The notes beneath the pieces were generated by a model. It was not told the DNA's origin. It saw only the letters and a program-made list of their open reading frames with translations, and made no database searches. DNA of 64,000 bases, from contig CP129473.1 of assembly GCA_030583745.1 (NCBI GenBank), forward strand, positions 616,211-680,210, written 5' to 3'. The position numbers and the translations under genes were made by a program. The DNA is from Minisyncoccota bacterium. Lineage in GTDB: Bacteria; Patescibacteriota; Minisyncoccia; Phycocordibacterales; BOKC01. Numbering within the stretch: position 1 is the first letter of the stretch; every line of letters begins with the position of its first letter. Below, one piece after another: positions 10,813-51,250 of this stretch.

Positions 10813-10837
10813 TTTTTAAAAAATCTTTACAAAAAAC

Positions 10838-10880
10838 ATTCTAACATTCTATAGAATGTTAGAATGTTTTTTTATGATTA
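10838..10880 (+). terminator. Rho-independent terminator (perfect 17-bp palindrome plus T-run)
   Basis: 'aacattctaacattcta tagaatgttagaatgtt ttttttt'. Confidence 0.75.
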
Positions 10881-30607: not shown

Positions 30608-30626
30608 GTTTTTATGATTTGCGAAC

Positions 30627-30878
30627 GTCGCCTTCGCAAACCCACTGGCGGACTTCGTCACGCCGTAGGTTCGCTTCGGCGAATCGAATGTTGCCTTCGC
30701 AAACCCACTGGCGGACTTCGTCACGCCGTAGGTTCGCTTCGGCGAACCGAATGTTGCCTTCGCAAACCCACTGGCGGACTTCGTCACGCCGTAGGTTCGC
30801 TTCGGCGAACCGAATGTTGCCTTCGCAAACCCACTGGCGGACTTCGTCACGCCGTAGGTTCGCTTCGGCGAACCGAAG
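30627..30878. repeat. 63-bp tandem repeat x4 that directly abuts the tRNA-Ser 3' end
   Basis: Unit 'gttgccttcgcaaacccactggcggacttcgtcacgccgtaggttcgcttcggcgaaccgaat'. It is GC-rich and open in three frames; in the longer ORF it would encode a 4x 21-aa repeat FGSPKRTYGVTKSASGFAKAT. Confidence 0.85.
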
Positions 30879-30879
30879 G

Positions 30880-30965
30880 CGGAGGAGGTGGGATTTGAAC
30901 CCACGAGGGGATTTCTCCCCTACGGATTAGCAATCCGCTCCGTTAGACCACTCCGGCACTCCTCC
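30880..30965 (-). tRNA. tRNA-Ser(GCU)
   Basis: Acceptor ggaggag/ctcctcc, 3-bp D-stem, anticodon loop tTGCTAa, long variable arm aggggagaaatcccct, and T-arm gtggg-ttcaaat-cccac. Confidence 0.9.
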
Positions 30966-34603: not shown

Positions 34604-36202
34604 ATGGCAAACGGTTTCAATATTCAAAAGATAAAAATTGGCAACCAAAAAATTCCGAGCGAAATTCTAAGCATTGTTCCGGAAGAATCAGCCAAGCACT
34701 ATAAATTTGCCCCACTTGGTATAAGGGACAGTGTTTTGGAATTAGGCATAGTTGATCCAGATAATATTGAGGCAAGAGATGCTCTAAATTTCATTTCGGC
34801 CAAAACCAGGTTGCCTTACAAACTTTTTTTGATTTCGGAAGAAGATTTTGAAAAGGTTTTGTCTATGTATCGCGGATTGTCAGAAGAGGTGACAAAAGCC
34901 CTTTCCCAACTTGAGGGTAACTCTGAAGCCGTCACCGGCGTGTCTTTCAGTCAGGAGGAAGAAGATTCAATAAAAGAAAAAAAACTCAAAGACACAAGTG
35001 AGAAGCAAGAGACAAAAATAGTTGAAACGGCTCCAATCACAAAAATCGTTGCCACAATTTTGCGTTATGCCGCTGAAGGTAATGCTTCTGATGTCCACAT
35101 TGAAAAAATGACGGAGAATATAAGGGTTCGTTTTCGGGTGGACGGTGTTTTAAATACAAGTCTAGTTTTACCTGCCAAGGTTCATTCTGCGATTGTCGCA
35201 AGAATAAAACTTTTATCAAACATGAAGTTGGATGAAAAGCGTAAGCCACAAGACGGAAGGTTTAGCGCTAAAATCGATGGTCGGAAGATTGATTTTCGTG
35301 TTTCAACCTTTCCAACTTATCATGGCGAGAAGGTGGTGATGAGAATTTTGGATTCCGGAAAAGGTATGAAGAAGCTCGAAGAGCTTGGATTTTCGGAAGA
35401 CAGCTTGGTGATGGTTAGAAAAGCCATAAAAAAACCTTACGGCTTGATTTTGATTTCTGGTCCGACCGGTAGCGGAAAGACAACTACTCTATATTCAATC
35501 CTCAATGAATTTGATAGGGAAAAAAACAACGTGCTTTCTTTGGAGGATCCGATTGAATACAACATTGAGGGCGTTAACCAGTCGCAAGTCCGCTCAGATA
35601 TTGGCTATACTTTCGCTAACGGTTTGAGAACTACTTTGCGCCAAGATCCAGACATTATAATGGTCGGTGAAATCAGAGATGCGGAAACTGCCGGTCTTGC
35701 GATTCAGGCCGCTTTGACTGGACATTTAGTTCTGGCAACAATCCACACCAATAATGCTGCGGGTGTCATTCCGCGTCTTATAGACATGAAGGTTGACCCG
35801 TATCTCATTGCCCCTACTTTGATTTTGGCAATGGCGCAAAGACTTGTAAGCTTGCTGTGTCCGGGGGCCGGCACGCCGACTCCGATTGAAGGTTCAATCA
35901 AAATGATGATAGACAAGCAGTTTAGTGATCTACCCGAAGAATTTCGCAAGAAACTGCCGATTGGGAATGAGGTTTACCGCTTGTCGCCCGGGCCCGAATG
36001 CCCGTCTGGTACTAGGGGCAGGATAGTCGTTTCCGAAATGTTTGAGATGGATAAAGATGTTGAGAGCGCGATTCTGAAGGGCTCGTCTGAACTTGAAATA
36101 GACAAAATCTTGAGAAATAAAGGCATGCTTAAAATGAAAGAAGATGCGATTTTGAAGTCATTTAAACGACTCATACCTTTTGAAGAGATATTGGGTTTGT
36201 AG
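34604..36202 (+). CDS. pilB: Type IV pilus assembly ATPase PilB (GspE family)
   Basis: Walker A LISGPTGSGKTTTL, Asp and His boxes, and a tetracysteine CPGAG...CPSG. Confidence 0.92.
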   Translation: MANGFNIQKIKIGNQKIPSEILSIVPEESAKHYKFAPLGIRDSVLELGIVDPDNIEARDALNFISAKTRLPYKLFLISEEDFEKVLSMYRGLSEEVTKALSQLEGNSEAVTGVSFSQEEEDSIKEKKLKDTSEKQETKIVETAPITKIVATILRYAAEGNASDVHIEKMTENIRVRFRVDGVLNTSLVLPAKVHSAIVARIKLLSNMKLDEKRKPQDGRFSAKIDGRKIDFRVSTFPTYHGEKVVMRILDSGKGMKKLEELGFSEDSLVMVRKAIKKPYGLILISGPTGSGKTTTLYSILNEFDREKNNVLSLEDPIEYNIEGVNQSQVRSDIGYTFANGLRTTLRQDPDIIMVGEIRDAETAGLAIQAALTGHLVLATIHTNNAAGVIPRLIDMKVDPYLIAPTLILAMAQRLVSLLCPGAGTPTPIEGSIKMMIDKQFSDLPEEFRKKLPIGNEVYRLSPGPECPSGTRGRIVVSEMFEMDKDVESAILKGSSELEIDKILRNKGMLKMKEDAILKSFKRLIPFEEILGL

Positions 36203-37888: not shown

Positions 37889-38242
37889 ATGGGCAGAGGA
37901 TATAAAGATTTAATTGTTTGGCAGAAGGCAAAAAATTTTTGTGTAAAAATATACAGAGTGACTGAGGAGTTTCCTAAATCAGAAACTTTTGGATTAGTAA
38001 GTCAATTAAGAAGGTCGTGTGTATCTATCCCGTCAAATATAGCAGAGGGCTCCAAAAGAAACAGTAAAAAAGACCAAAATCAATTTTACTCTATTGCCTA
38101 CGGTTCGGGAGCCGAGGTTGAAACCCAGTTGGATATTTCAAAAGAATTATTTCCAACATTAAAAGATAAAATTACCGCTATTGAAAATGAGCTGACTGAG
38201 ATTATGAAGATGTTAAATAAGTTAAGAAGTTATAAACTATAG
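37889..38242 (+). CDS. Four-helix-bundle protein (TIGR02436, the '23S rRNA intervening-sequence protein' family)
   Basis: LIVWQKA..F...Y.....FPK.E.FGL.SQLRR...SI..NIAEG; flanked by inverted 'tagttt' hexamer repeats. Confidence 0.85.
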   Translation: MGRGYKDLIVWQKAKNFCVKIYRVTEEFPKSETFGLVSQLRRSCVSIPSNIAEGSKRNSKKDQNQFYSIAYGSGAEVETQLDISKELFPTLKDKITAIENELTEIMKMLNKLRSYKL

Positions 38243-39518: not shown

Positions 39519-39878
39519 ATGCAATCTTACAAAAATCTGATTGTTTGGCAAAAAAATTTCGAACTTGTTAAATCTGTCTATAACCTGACCAAACAATTTC
39601 CAAGAGAGGAATTATACGGACTGGTTTCACAGATGCGCCGGTCGGCAGTTTCCATTCCGTCTAACCTTGCAGAAGGTTATAGTAGGAAATCAAGACAAGA
39701 ATATATTCAGTTTGTAAGAATTGCTTTTGGTTCTGGGGCGGAATTAGAAACTCAACTTTTATTAGTTATAGACCTGAAACTGGCTAACCAAAACGAAACC
39801 GAAAAAGTGTATAATCAATTAGTGGAGGTAATGAAAATGCTGAACAAATTAATTTCTTCCCTAACCCCTAAACCCTAG
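39519..39878 (+). CDS. Second four-helix-bundle protein (TIGR02436), about 45-50% identical to the first copy
   Basis: Same LIVWQK...GLVSQMRRSAVSIPSNLAEG motif; flanked by inverted 'tagggt' hexamer repeats. Confidence 0.85.
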   Translation: MQSYKNLIVWQKNFELVKSVYNLTKQFPREELYGLVSQMRRSAVSIPSNLAEGYSRKSRQEYIQFVRIAFGSGAELETQLLLVIDLKLANQNETEKVYNQLVEVMKMLNKLISSLTPKP

Positions 39879-40103: not shown

Positions 40104-40472
40104 ATGAACATTTTCAGAAAAAGTCAAAAAGGTTTTACCTTAATTGAACTTTTGGTTGTTATCGCTATTATCGGTATCTTGTCTTCAGTTGTATTGGCTT
40201 CGCTTAATACTGCTAGAACAAAAGCAGCTATTTCAGCATATCAAGCTGAACTAAGAGGCGCTGTTCCATCACTTCTTGTTGATTGTGATGGCGCTGCTTC
40301 AGGTGCGAATGCTACAGTTGCGGCTACTGAGAGACATGCTGCAATCACAGTCACTTGTGATGGACTCGGCGGATTTGCTGATGTACAAGTTCCACCAATT
40401 CCGGCTACATTAGCAGAATGTGGAACGGTCACTGATGAGGGTGTAACCTTTACAGGTGCAGTTTGCGCATAA
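40104..40472 (+). CDS. pilA: Type IV major pilin (PilA-like)
   Basis: Prepilin leader plus GFTLIELLVVIAIIGIL, and a C-terminal Cys pair. Confidence 0.9.
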   Translation: MNIFRKSQKGFTLIELLVVIAIIGILSSVVLASLNTARTKAAISAYQAELRGAVPSLLVDCDGAASGANATVAATERHAAITVTCDGLGGFADVQVPPIPATLAECGTVTDEGVTFTGAVCA

Positions 40473-40497
40473 GCTTTCATTCTAAATGAGACCTACA

Positions 40498-40616
40498 GCA
40501 AGGAATTTGCTTGATAATTCCTTGATAAGAAAAACCCCCGCAAAACGGGGGTTTTTCTTTAAACTTCTAAAGTTTCCCACAACATCCTTACCTTATCAAG
40601 GAATTTCCTTGATAGA
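40498..40616. repeat. REP-like palindromic repeats (two copies) flanking the pilA terminator, upstream of the RAYT gene
   Basis: Perfect palindrome 'tatcaaggaatttccttgata' at 40593-40616 and a degenerate copy at 40498-40530. Confidence 0.8.
40535..40557 (+). terminator. Rho-independent terminator after pilA
   Basis: 'aaaaaccccc gcaaaac gggggttttt'. Confidence 0.8.
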
Positions 40617-40626
40617 ATAAAGGTAT

Positions 40627-41286
40627 ATGGGAATAAGAAACATAACTTTTTCCGAGGGTGAATTTTATCACGTATTCAACCGAGGTGTAGATAAAAGGGT
40701 TATTTTTATTGATAATGGCGATCGCGAACGTTTTGTCCGCCTTTTGTACGCGACAAACAGTACTATGGAAGCGCATATCAGCAATTATCAAGGAATTTCC
40801 TTGATAGAAATCCCGCGAGGGGAGACTATTGTAGACATTGGCGCGTGGTGCATTATGCCTAACCATTTTCATCTTCTGTTGAGGGAAAAAATTGAAAAAG
40901 GGATAAGTATTTTTATGAAAAAGCTATTAACGGGATATTCAATGTATTTTAATACTAAATATCAAAGGAAGGGTAAACTTTTTGAAGGGAAGTTTTCAGC
41001 AAAACATTTAAATACTGATAATTATTTAAAATACCAATACGCTTATATCCATTTGAACCCAATCGGCATTATTGAAAATGGTTGGAAACAAAAAAAGATT
41101 AATGACAAAGAAGGAGCCAAAAAATTTCTTTCTTCTTACGATTATTCAAGTTATTTAGACTATGCAAAATCAGACGACAGAGTAGAATCAGCCATTTTAG
41201 AAAAACCGGCATTTCCGGAATACTTTCAAACTTTCACTGAATTTAATTCAATGATTGATGAATGGATAAATTTTGAAGAATTATAA
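40627..41286 (+). mobile_element. REP-associated tyrosine transposase (RAYT, IS200/IS605-like HuH Y1 transposase)
   Basis: HuH motif CIMPNHFHLLL, the RAYT C-terminal motif YAYIHLNPIGIIENGW, and catalytic-Tyr region GYSMYFNTKYQ. It is flanked by cognate REP palindromes and contains one copy at 40785-40805. Confidence 0.8.
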
Positions 41287-41320
41287 TTTTTGCTTTTTTT
41301 GGTTTATAATTATTCTCATA

Positions 41321-41761
41321 ATGCATAGAAAAAATAAAGGCTTCACCTTGATAGAGCTCTTGGTGGTAATTTCTATTATTGGTGTTTTGGCTTCTATCGT
41401 TCTGGTCTCTCTTCAAAGCGCCAGGGAAAGAGCGCGACTAGCTGATGTTCAGAGTTCTTTAAGGTCAATTGTTCCTGCGGTAGTTTTATGCGTTGATTCT
41501 AATTCAGACCTTACTTGCGGACAATCGGGCCAGACCTTTCCTTGCACAGGTCAAGATGGCGGGGGGGACCAACCTTCAGCCGGCGTGCCAATATGTGGCA
41601 ATCTAAGCGCTACAGATGTTGCCTGGCCCAATTTACCAGCTGGCTGGAGTTATGGAAACAACGCAAGGACTAACCAAATAGAATCGACTTTTGAATATTC
41701 CGCAACTGGTAATGGTAATACCGTAACCTGCACTGAAACTGGCTGCCAAACAGAAAATTAA
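41321..41761 (+). CDS. Second type IV pilin or pseudopilin
   Basis: Prepilin motif KGFTLIELLVVISIIGVLASI. Start placed at MHRKNKG. Confidence 0.85.
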   Translation: MHRKNKGFTLIELLVVISIIGVLASIVLVSLQSARERARLADVQSSLRSIVPAVVLCVDSNSDLTCGQSGQTFPCTGQDGGGDQPSAGVPICGNLSATDVAWPNLPAGWSYGNNARTNQIESTFEYSATGNGNTVTCTETGCQTEN

Positions 41762-42628
41762 ATGACCATCTTTTTTTCTATTTCAATTTTTATTCTAGGA
41801 ACTTTAGTCGGTAGTTTTTTGAATGTGGTGACTCTGCGCTATGGCACGGATAGAGGTGTTGTTCGCAAGCGTTCTTCTTGCCCGTCGTGTAAAAAGGTCT
41901 TAGGTCCTGCCGAGCTCGTTCCAATCCTAAGTTTTATTTTGCAAAAGGGCAGATGCCGAAAGTGTAAGGCCAAAATTTCTTGGCAGTATCCGCTGGTGGA
42001 ATTTTTGACCGGCCTTGTTTTTCTCCTAGTTTTTTTAAAAGTTATCCTTTATCAAGGAAATTCCTTGATATCAAGGAATTTCCTTGATATGGGGACTATT
42101 GGAGAATTGTTTTTCTACTGGACAATCTTTTCTGTTCTAATTGCCATTTCAGTTTACGATTTCCATCATAAAATTATTCCGGATGAATTTGTTTTCACCT
42201 TTATCGCGCTTTCTTTTCTTGTCGGTTTTCTGGAATTTTTGAATTCCGGATTTTTAGCTTGGCTTTTGGCCGGACCCTTGATTGTCGCACCATTTTTTCT
42301 AATTTGGCTTTTTTCCGGCGGGCGTTGGATGGGCTTTGGCGATGTTAAGCTCGCGCTTGGTATCGGCTGGTTTCTCGGAATTGTCGGGGGAATTTACGCG
42401 ATCCTTTGGTCTTTTTGGATTGGAGGAGCAGTGGCGATTGTTCTTTTACTTTCAAAAAATTTTCTATCAACATTACCGTCCAAAGGCGCGTTGTTTTCAG
42501 AGCTTAAAGGGCTTACAATTAAGAGTGAAATCCCATTCGGTCCGTTTCTGGTCTTGGGCACGATGATTTATTTTTTTGCGGAACATGACTTTTTGGGGCT
42601 CGACATGTTTTTCAGACTAATTTTCTAG
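41762..42628 (+). CDS. pilD: Prepilin peptidase PilD (A24 family) with an in-frame tandem REP insertion
   Basis: Zn-finger CPSC...CRKC and peptidase A24 TM core. At 42051-42088 there are two head-to-tail 19-21-bp REP palindromes encoding ...YQGNSLISRNFLD... Confidence 0.88.
   Translation: MTIFFSISIFILGTLVGSFLNVVTLRYGTDRGVVRKRSSCPSCKKVLGPAELVPILSFILQKGRCRKCKAKISWQYPLVEFLTGLVFLLVFLKVILYQGNSLISRNFLDMGTIGELFFYWTIFSVLIAISVYDFHHKIIPDEFVFTFIALSFLVGFLEFLNSGFLAWLLAGPLIVAPFFLIWLFSGGRWMGFGDVKLALGIGWFLGIVGGIYAILWSFWIGGAVAIVLLLSKNFLSTLPSKGALFSELKGLTIKSEIPFGPFLVLGTMIYFFAEHDFLGLDMFFRLIF
42051..42088. repeat. Tandem pair of REP palindromes in opposite orientation inside pilD
   Basis: 'atcaaggaaattccttgat' plus 'atcaaggaatttccttgat'. 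Confidence 0.85.
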
Positions 42629-42644: not shown

Positions 42645-43421
42645 ATGAAGAAAAATCAGAATCTTGAATCCGGCATCACACTGATTGAACTATTAGTCTC
42701 GATTTTTATTATTATCCTTATAACCTCTGTTGTTGTCTTTAACCATCGCGCCTTTACCGACAAACTGGAAATTACCAATCTGGCTTTTGATATTGCTCTC
42801 ACTATCAGGGAAGCGCAGGTTTCGGGCATTGCCGTAGAGCAGGCGCCTGATGTCGGGGGATTTGAAAACGCTTTCGGAGTCTCTTTTTTCATAAGGACAC
42901 AGCCGAGCGAGGGCGGAGATGTTAATAATGATAAAATTTTTATAAGATTCATAGATTTTGATTCGGAAGGTGATACTGATTTTTTAATGTATAACGGCAC
43001 TTACGATTGCACCGATTCAGAATGTTTGGAAAAAGTTGAAATAGGTCGTGGAAATAAAATAAGTCATATTTGCTACAGGAACGGAGGGGCTTTGAAGTGC
43101 GGTAGTCCGATAAGAAGTGAGCCGAGAGGGGTTGATATCGCCTTTTTAAGACCCAAGCCGGACGCTTCCATAAAATTCAGAGATGCGGGAGGGGAATATC
43201 TTTCAAGCGATGAAGGGGTATCTCTTGATAATTTGGAAGCGGTAATTTGTCTTGAGTCGCCCTTGGGTAGAAAAAAGAGCGTTCATGTTTTACCGACTGG
43301 TCAGATTTCGGTTCGAGACGGTGAAGGATGTCTTACACCTGGTGGCGGGCCGGGCGGAGGTGCTCCAGGAGGAGGTGGTCCAGGAGGAGGTGCTCCAGGA
43401 GGAGGTGGTCCACCCGGCTAA
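42645..43421 (+). CDS. Minor pilin or pseudopilin with a Gly/Pro-rich C-terminal tail
   Basis: Prepilin N-terminus GITLIELLVSIFII. The C-terminus GGGPGGGAPGGGGPGGGAPGGGGPPG comes from tandem ~21-bp repeats. Confidence 0.75.
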   Translation: MKKNQNLESGITLIELLVSIFIIILITSVVVFNHRAFTDKLEITNLAFDIALTIREAQVSGIAVEQAPDVGGFENAFGVSFFIRTQPSEGGDVNNDKIFIRFIDFDSEGDTDFLMYNGTYDCTDSECLEKVEIGRGNKISHICYRNGGALKCGSPIRSEPRGVDIAFLRPKPDASIKFRDAGGEYLSSDEGVSLDNLEAVICLESPLGRKKSVHVLPTGQISVRDGEGCLTPGGGPGGGAPGGGGPGGGAPGGGGPPG

Positions 43422-51174: not shown

Positions 51175-51250
51175 TGGAGCCGACCCGGGGACTTGAACCC
51201 CGCACCTACGGTTTACGATACCGTTGCTCTACCAGATGAGCTAGGTCGGC
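51175..51250 (-). tRNA. tRNA-Thr(CGU) with an encoded CCA
   Basis: Acceptor gccgacc/ggtcggc; D-arm gctc-atctggta-gagc; anticodon stem acggt/accgt with loop aTCGTAa; T-arm cgggg-ttcaagt-ccccg; discriminator U plus CCA. Confidence 0.9.

Follow-up and report, generated by a model that had tools for sequence, protein, structure and literature searches.

The 64-kb window analysed here, that is, the whole stretch of 64,000 nucleotides taken from contig CP129473.1 of a Minisyncoccota bacterium, contains a single-copy gene for a Y1 HuH nuclease in its type IV pilus operon. This protein resembles the REP-associated tyrosine transposases (RAYTs; REP, repetitive extragenic palindrome), and short perfect hairpins lie before its gene, inside it and within the nearby prepilin peptidase gene pilD. 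We consider it likely that the locus represents a module of the REPtron kind, belonging to a large family of RAYT-like HuH nucleases (class-2 TnpA-Y1) in Patescibacteria. According to the mechanism that we propose, the nuclease would recognise a short perfect hairpin on single-stranded DNA (stem type ..CAAGG-N-CCTTG.., with the apex AGG..CCT), and would cut and rejoin the DNA via a phosphotyrosine link. Each member of the family would keep its own version of the hairpin just before its start codon and at or after its stop codon. The hairpin would occasionally be copied nearby, and a copy in a coding sequence would persist only when the frame is kept and a tolerant loop receives it. In the window, such copies would be an old, clade-wide one in the αA-β2 loop of the nuclease and an inverted doublet in the inter-domain linker of PilD. 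Family membership and co-variation suggest that hairpin recognition takes place on single-stranded DNA and that Y140 carries out cleavage and joining. The nuclease may also be the maker of the hairpin copies, whose identity within a locus could be due to gene conversion, re-insertion or selection.

A RAYT-like nuclease and its hairpins in the window

The nuclease gene (40627-41286, plus strand) encodes a protein of 219 amino acids with the HuH motif H80-F-H82, within the tetrapeptide NHFH, a second motif, FE (F119-E120), and the catalytic-tyrosine motif Y140-IHLNP. Residues 69-142 match positions 41-119 of the Pfam profile PF01797 (Y1_Tnp) with 31.1 bits, the cut-off being 23. Across 28 aligned homologues H80, H82, Y140 and N144 never vary, and the conservation of P145 is 90% or more. 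The Y-x-x-x-N-P arrangement (Y140-I-H-L-N144-P145) is the motif of class 2, IS200 transposases having Y-x-x-x-Q in its place (PMC6006769). An AlphaFold model of the protein (predicted local distance difference test, pLDDT, 87.8) finds its best Foldseek match in the PDB in 4ER8_A (E 1.9e-6, template-modelling score 0.64, target-normalised, at 13% sequence identity), followed by the TnpA proteins of ISDra2 and IS608 (E of at least 5e-4) and also by an IS200 transposase. The C-terminus has no Pfam domain match. The profile match, the nearest fold and the tyrosine motif thus agree with an earlier note on this DNA, in which the gene had been read as a Y1 HuH protein of the RAYT class.

Comparison with the 94%-identical gene of a second strain (L008) gives a ratio of nonsynonymous to synonymous differences (pN/pS) of 0.16, with differences that are mostly synonymous, and the nuclease gene is therefore under purifying selection. 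The gene is single-copy in the window, and more than 3,800 homologues were matched in databases. Those with a name come from metagenome-assembled genomes (MAGs) of Parcubacteria, Paceibacteria or Minisyncoccota, which fits the previous suggestion of a genome like those of the candidate phyla radiation (CPR). A few homologues are labelled RayT by the Joint Genome Institute, and nearly all homologue clusters are found on one or a few contigs.

The palindrome that accompanies the gene is a 21-mer, TATCAAGGAA(T/A)TTCCTTGATA, with four exact copies and one variant, all within 40496-42089. The exact copies lie at 40594-40614, 40786-40806, 42050-42070 (centre A) and 42069-42089, and the variant at 40496-40528. 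With up to 3 mismatches allowed, there are 9 strand-matches against 0.01 expected, none of them elsewhere in the window, and a general hairpin scan of the window revealed no further family of the CAAGG..CCTTG type. The hairpin of the window, GGAATTTCC / CAAGGAATTTCCTTG, is of the CAAGGAAWTTCCTTG type. The presence of palindromes near and inside the nuclease gene and in pilD, as the earlier note had it, is thus confirmed.

The perfect 21-nt hairpin at 40594-40614 stands 33 nt ahead of the nuclease start codon, which is the canonical upstream position of the family (DNA fold -6.8 kcal/mol, z -4.3). The two upstream palindromes had both been described as perfect. This holds for the copy at 40594-40614, whereas the other (CAAGGAATT-TGCTTGAT-AATTCCTTG, 40499-40524, 27 nt past the pilA stop codon) has a 9-bp stem with an 8-nt loop. 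In the DNA fold this variant directly precedes the putative pilA terminator hairpin, and it has equivalents in L008 and in another related locus, L006. The peptide attributed to the palindrome, YQGNSLI, is the one encoded when the centre base is A; a centre T gives YQGISLI.

Hairpins that co-vary with their nuclease genes

The family-wide anatomy was derived from 80 metagenome loci with homologues, together with contigs of close relatives, comprising 87 homologous genes. Flank hairpins were counted for the 72 genes that had 120 nt or more of sequence at either end, taking perfect hairpins with a stem of at least 7. A hairpin lies within 120 nt before the start codon in 58 of these 72 genes, mostly at -30 to -55, and in the interval from -45 to +120 nt relative to the stop codon in 52, a cognate upstream/downstream pair being present in 45. 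The apex AGG..CCT is found in 116 of 148 flank hairpins.

The hairpin sequence differs between loci and agrees within each locus. Thus, L009 (67% identity) has GGAAAGTCC / CAAGGAAAGTCCTTG, L013 has GGCCTCGCC / CCAAGGCCTCGCCTTGG, L026 has GGCGGCGCC / TCAAGGCGGCGCCTTGA, L031 has GGTTCAACC / ACAAGGTTCAACCTTGT, and L014 carries a 33-nt hairpin. The cognate 10-mer also occurs within the coding sequence in 28 of 74 loci, against 133 of 5402 (2.5%) in a cross-locus control. Most in-gene copies, that of the window included, fall at +158 to +168 nt, and further positions are +260 to +285, +175, +190, +445 and +535 to +552. Taking into account this co-variation of flank and in-gene hairpins across loci, the palindrome can be regarded as the cognate hairpin of the nuclease, and its association with the gene, already put forward from the window, is upheld. 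A uniformly inverted orientation of the flank copies was also considered, and is ruled out by 17 copies in the same orientation against 21 inverted, with 10 ambiguous.

The copy inside the nuclease gene of the window (40786-40806) is in frame and encodes Y54-QGISLI-60. It is identical to the upstream copy over 25 of 25 nt, flanks included. In the AlphaFold model, residues 54-60 belong to a lower-pLDDT loop between helix 30-42 and strand 69-76. The 27 aligned homologues of 56-94% identity have near-equal lengths, and most of them show S-N-Y-Q-G-x-S-L-x-E at this point. YQGx[SATP]L is present in 55 of the 120 best matches, with decayed versions in many others, and L008 has the same in-gene arrangement. 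These comparisons show that the in-gene palindrome is native to the clade. Read as a recent, local event, the insertion into the RAYT gene that had been supposed is not supported, in view of the clade-native YQGxSLx, the unchanged gene length and the arrangement shared with L008. Across members, the loop 44-72 (27 amino acids in the window) ranges from 23 to 48 amino acids. The loop H82-K99 has 16 amino acids in nearly all members and 18-30 where a hairpin occurs at +260 to +285, so the hairpins at the +270 site are true in-frame insertions.

It could be thought that YQGxSLI answers to a requirement of the protein and is palindromic by accident, the copies outside the gene being local duplications, given that the peptide is common to many close homologues and that all copies lie within 1.6 kb. 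However, more distant members read IQGLALD, KLREGLTFTEL, INQGGALM or LQGSTLL, and their DNA still forms a perfect hairpin that matches their own flank copies. The codon choices are, moreover, mutually complementary: at +159 the Gly codon ends in the base that pairs with the start of the Ser, Ala or Thr codon (GGA-TCC, GGC-GCC, GGT-ACC), and thus it is the DNA pairing that determines the residue. In the model this stretch is a loop of low confidence, and other members have the hairpin at other sites (+270, +445, +535). All this makes an accidental palindrome highly improbable. As for the role of the in-gene copy, it is conceivable, though we think it unlikely, that it acts as a working recognition site for self-regulation or self-targeting and not as a passenger, being kept identical to the flank copies by selection or directed conversion across a clade spanning at least 45-94% protein identity, and that the module is a long-term resident of the pilus/DNA-uptake operon, where single-stranded DNA is handled.

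The pilD palindrome and the history of the locus

The two copies in pilD have 2 nt in common and opposite bases at their centres, and therefore constitute a perfect 40-nt inverted doublet (20+20; 42050-42089) and not the head-to-tail pair previously described. Its DNA fold reaches -18.5 kcal/mol (z -7.4). The doublet encodes YQGNSLI-SRNFLD (amino acids 97-109), in the variable linker between the A24_N_bact (11-93) and Peptidase_A24 (121-226) domains. As had been stated, the copies in pilD and in the nuclease gene leave the reading frame intact. The argument that 21 nt, being 3x7, would be tolerated on either strand does not explain the pair, since the two copies are translated in different frames, the first giving YQGNSLI and the second SRNFLD.

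Comparison with orthologues supports the location in a variable inter-domain linker, and the insertion itself is not evident by length: from VFL to YD, the linker has 37-43 amino acids in orthologues vs 44 here, with IPDLSLI in relatives vs ILYQGNSLI here. A clean insertion of 13 amino acids was considered and is unproven, linkers of orthologues without the doublet being similar in length. For the same reason, the idea that the element remodels pilus genes is not supported.

The doublet is also present in L008, in L089-L091 and in L092, where it is spaced one codon wider, so that the frame is preserved. L008 keeps the same layout, including the pilD doublet, though its second pilin is a different allele. 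In L089-L091 (PilD 95% identical) the nuclease gene has been lost except for its last ~85 nt, identical to window ~41205-41286; the remnant and the second pilin, which in L089 is homologous to that of the window, are flanked by another hairpin type, GGCAAGGTTTAACCTTGAC (L089 6900-7600), and pilD retains the doublet of the window type with one mutation. Hairpins as the bounds of a swappable pilin cassette (40594/42050 in the window, 6974/7555 in L089) were considered and discarded, as the borders of the variable second-pilin segment, window against L008, miss the hairpins. Public short-read contigs break inside the pilD palindrome, L006 at window ~42079 and L008 at the equivalent of ~42105, which is probably an assembly effect.

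The arrangement in L089 bears on the proposal that the palindromes are host regulatory sites or RNA structures unrelated to the nuclease, for instance an operator bound by a dimeric regulator, or an element that stabilises or attenuates the mRNA of the pilus operon. Such a role would suit the copies that follow the pilA stop codon and precede the next start codon by 33 nt; all copies would be transcribed with the operon, and REPs elsewhere have been reported to act on mRNA (PMC3733652). Nevertheless, L089 keeps the pilD doublet and has another hairpin type around its nuclease remnant. The hairpin sequence tracks the nuclease gene, and most homologues lie outside pilus operons with the same layout. 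No T run follows the hairpins, and a comparison with Rfam gave no family above threshold, either for the region or, except for tRNAs and tmRNA, for the whole window. A purely regulatory origin is, in our opinion, very unlikely.

The position between pilin and pilD is also occupied by the nuclease gene in L010 (67% nuclease identity) and L075 (43%), and thus the same operon position is found at 94%, 67% and 43% nuclease identity, with PilD identity dropping in parallel. In L093 and L035 a nuclease homologue stands beside pilD on the opposite strand.

These positions have to be set against the possibility of an autonomous IS200-type insertion sequence, a transposing unit of ~750 bp whose ends would be the hairpins. 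The hairpin-gene-hairpin layout has tightly fixed positions throughout the family, members are found in many genomic contexts and in both orientations beside pilD, and two different paralogues coexist within 10 kb in L020, L032, L035 and L070. The family shares with the IS200/IS605 TnpA proteins the PF01797 superfamily and hairpins at the gene ends. These elements are, however, characterised by Y-x-x-x-Q, multiple copies, distinct imperfect left and right hairpins and often tnpB, none of which is seen here. The motif is Y-x-x-x-N-P (PMC6006769 Table 1), the fold is nearest to TnpA-REP, and the gene is single-copy in the window, homologue clusters being nearly all limited to one or a few contigs. 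No identical extra copies were seen, and co-resident paralogues have different hairpins. The order pilin-nuclease-pilD is held from 94% to ~43% nuclease identity in parallel with PilD, and purifying selection acts on the gene. The window lacks a right-end hairpin, and no tnpB-like open reading frame (ORF) adjoins the nuclease gene in the ORF list. An insertion sequence is accordingly judged improbable.

Several results weigh against the REPtron-like module that we favour. The NCBIfam equivalog NF047646 (REP_Tyr_transpos) yields 38.6 bits vs a cut-off of 80, so that, among the profile models, the RAYT assignment is backed by PF01797 and not by the dedicated RAYT model. By sequence alone, matches in the PDB are marginal (E 0.3-0.9), which made the fold search necessary. 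The 5' tetranucleotide GT[AG]G (or CGTC) that forms the foot of REP hairpins is absent from the window copies, whose flanks are ccttaccT-, gcaatT- and atcctT-TATCAAGG, and the GT[AG]G foot of classical REPs occurs in none of the family flank hairpins. No hairpin directly follows the nuclease stop codon in the window, the next copies being those at 42050 and 42069, and the mixed orientation of the flank copies across the family points the same way. The pilD copies, and the ligA copy described below, do not lengthen the loops of their hosts, and insertion is therefore not demonstrated for either.

Dispersal is scarce. In the window, no copy is found more than ~800 nt beyond the ends of the nuclease gene. 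Farther than 1 kb from the genes, three distant cognate copies are present in ~350 kb of flanks, of which 61 kb belong to the window. One of them (L035 6271-6287; SAMSRFNLDIEYVCELKIDG), at a distance of 2.4 kb from the nuclease gene, is in frame in ligA, which encodes the NAD-dependent DNA ligase; this copy is read MSRFNLDI, and the ligA loop is not lengthened. None of the representative genomes (185,579 species) has the exact 21-mer more than once; the 21-mer has 5 single matches in unrelated MAGs, four of which look like chance or terminator-like palindromes, and no match in viral contigs. Thus, as far as the flanks and the window show, a mobile, dispersed population of REP hairpins is not supported, and neither is the term REP, in the sense of a dispersed repeat used in the earlier note, also in view of the missing foot and the NCBIfam score. 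The remaining single match is an exact 21-mer in frame in a cysteine-desulfurase-like ORF of a Saccharibacteria MAG (L001 3103-3123, CAZJFZ010000010.1; HARKIYQGISLIFHTDASQAG). No nuclease homologue was found within the 8 kb examined there, and this copy could be a further intragenic one or a chance match.

The module occupies the distal part of an operon that the ORF list and Pfam identify as a type IV pilus operon. Its gene order is pilB (34604-36202), a response regulator, pilT, a 23S-rRNA-IVP-type gene, pilC, a second IVP-type gene, a pilin (40104-40472), the 219-amino-acid ORF (40627-41286), a second pilin (41321-41761), pilD (41762-42628), minor pilins and ligA. The upstream neighbour of the module is the pilA-like major pilin gene (40104-40472, plus strand; Pfam N_methyl, E 5e-11). 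Between two hairpin copies follows a G+C-rich 14-bp hairpin with a T run (40527-40559, plus strand), likely the pilA terminator; this is a reading of the sequence, because a simple terminator scan did not list it. The promoter/terminator scan was uninformative, with 10 promoter-like sites against 7.6 expected.

The second pilin gene (41321-41761, plus strand; Pfam N_methyl), between the nuclease gene and pilD (plus strand), is outside the hairpin system, though flanked by hairpin copies. The DNA of its N-terminus (41327-41355) is 72% identical to the 29-nt repeat unit, and the peptide QG-ISLIE of the in-gene copy (40786-40812) resembles the prepilin cleavage motif KG-FTLIE; these likenesses are probably coincidental.

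Other features of the window can be mentioned. Two 23S_rRNA_IVP/four-helix-bundle (TIGR02436) genes, at 37889-38242 and 39519-39878, lie on either side of pilC, the first after pilT and the second before pilA. The relative L094 has neither of them at these places, and L008 carries a different one; they look like small variable operon inserts. A minor-pilin-like ORF (42645-43421) has a Gly/Pro-rich tail, GGGPGGGAPGGGGPGGGAPGGGGPPG, at 43340-43418. A tandem repeat with a period of 63 bp and copies 95-98% identical (30622-30877) abuts a tRNA gene (30880-30965). A 250-bp inverted repeat, 99.6% identical (51297-51546/61306-61556), encloses ~9.8 kb beside another tRNA gene (51178-51250), a segment that may be invertible or mobile; a second inverted repeat, of 110 bp (61554-61663/63299-63411), comes directly after it. 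Finally, a perfect A+T-rich palindrome of 42 nt (10831-10872; stem 21, no loop) is unrelated to the CAAGG hairpins.

Relation to known systems and meaning of the module

The best structural match, TnpA-REP of E. coli (4ER8, bound to its REP hairpin; TnpA-Y1 subclass 2.2), shares with the window protein the Y1 HuH fold and Y-x-x-x-N-P, and its REPtron shares a gene that is single-copy (here, within the window) and has its own flanking hairpins, as well as the co-evolution of gene and hairpin. The window protein differs from it in its 13% identity, in ~70 extra C-terminal residues and in its score below the NCBIfam RAYT cut-off. Unlike E. coli REPs, the hairpins here are short perfect palindromes devoid of the GT[AG]G foot and of bulges; there is no REP population of hundreds of copies, and the host is a Patescibacterium.

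TnpA-Y1 proteins have been sorted into classes, with RAYTs contained in class 2 (Y..NP) (Quentin, Siguier, Chandler, Fichant 2018, PMC6006769). In subclass 2.4, from Cyanobacteria and Bacteroidetes, REPs occur in frame within the tnpA-REP gene itself (PMC6006769 section 12), between HuH and Y, the motifs being NH[IFV]H, WQ and YIxNNP (PMC6006769 Table 1). The module of the window is similar in having cognate hairpins beside and inside the nuclease gene, with an intact frame and in peripheral loops, and NH[IFV]H fits NHFH. By the printed motifs it differs in FE and YIHLNP, and its in-gene copy (amino acids 54-60) precedes HuH, although some members of the family carry theirs after HuH (+270), as subclass 2.4 does. 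It also differs in lacking GTAG 'long' or 'double-foot' REPs and in an in-gene copy that is clade-wide and identical to the flank copies.

Judged from printed motifs only, the window protein is closest to subclass 2.1/TIRYT (Bertels group 1), with NH[YF]H and Y[IV]HLNP, longer proteins (median 238 amino acids) extended at the C-terminus, and few copies (PMC6006769 Table 1). That subclass has no REP-like hairpins nearby and has C-terminal domains of the helix-turn-helix type (PMC6006769), whereas here hairpins are the rule and the C-terminus gives no Pfam match. The terms Parcubacteria and Candidatus were not found in the main text of PMC6006769, and, among top-ranked matches of literature searches combining RAYT or tyrosine transposase with CPR terms, neither RAYT nor tyrosine transposase is mentioned.

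Short palindromes in frame in functional genes, frequently dimeric and located in loops, have likewise been described as intragenic REPs, for which DNA ligase is one of the hosts (Di Nocera et al. 2013, PMC3733652), and as Rickettsia palindromic elements (Ogata et al. 2000, cited in PMC3733652); the ligase host recalls L035. Those elements form abundant genome-wide families that add 20-30 residues, whereas here copies are few and near the nuclease gene, and the PilD and LigA loops are not measurably longer.

In-frame copies are not a novelty, because they have been published both in tnpA-REP genes (PMC6006769) and in unrelated genes (PMC3733652), and for this same reason the general picture of REP/RAYT biology is unchanged. 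What has been found is an arrangement known from other phyla, here in its CPR form. What is new is a Patescibacteria family with non-GTAG hairpins, very low copy number near the gene, an in-gene copy that the whole clade shares and that matches the flank copies exactly, and recurrent residence in pilus operons.

RAYT-type hairpin/nuclease modules are thus extended to Patescibacteria, where a very large family seems to keep a handful of cognate hairpins by the gene and not a genome-wide REP population. In very compact genomes, such hairpins can persist in essential genes, such as pilD, ligA or the nuclease gene itself. Moreover, the locus-specific hairpins are a natural data set of protein-hairpin co-variation, usable for the recognition code of Y1 nucleases.

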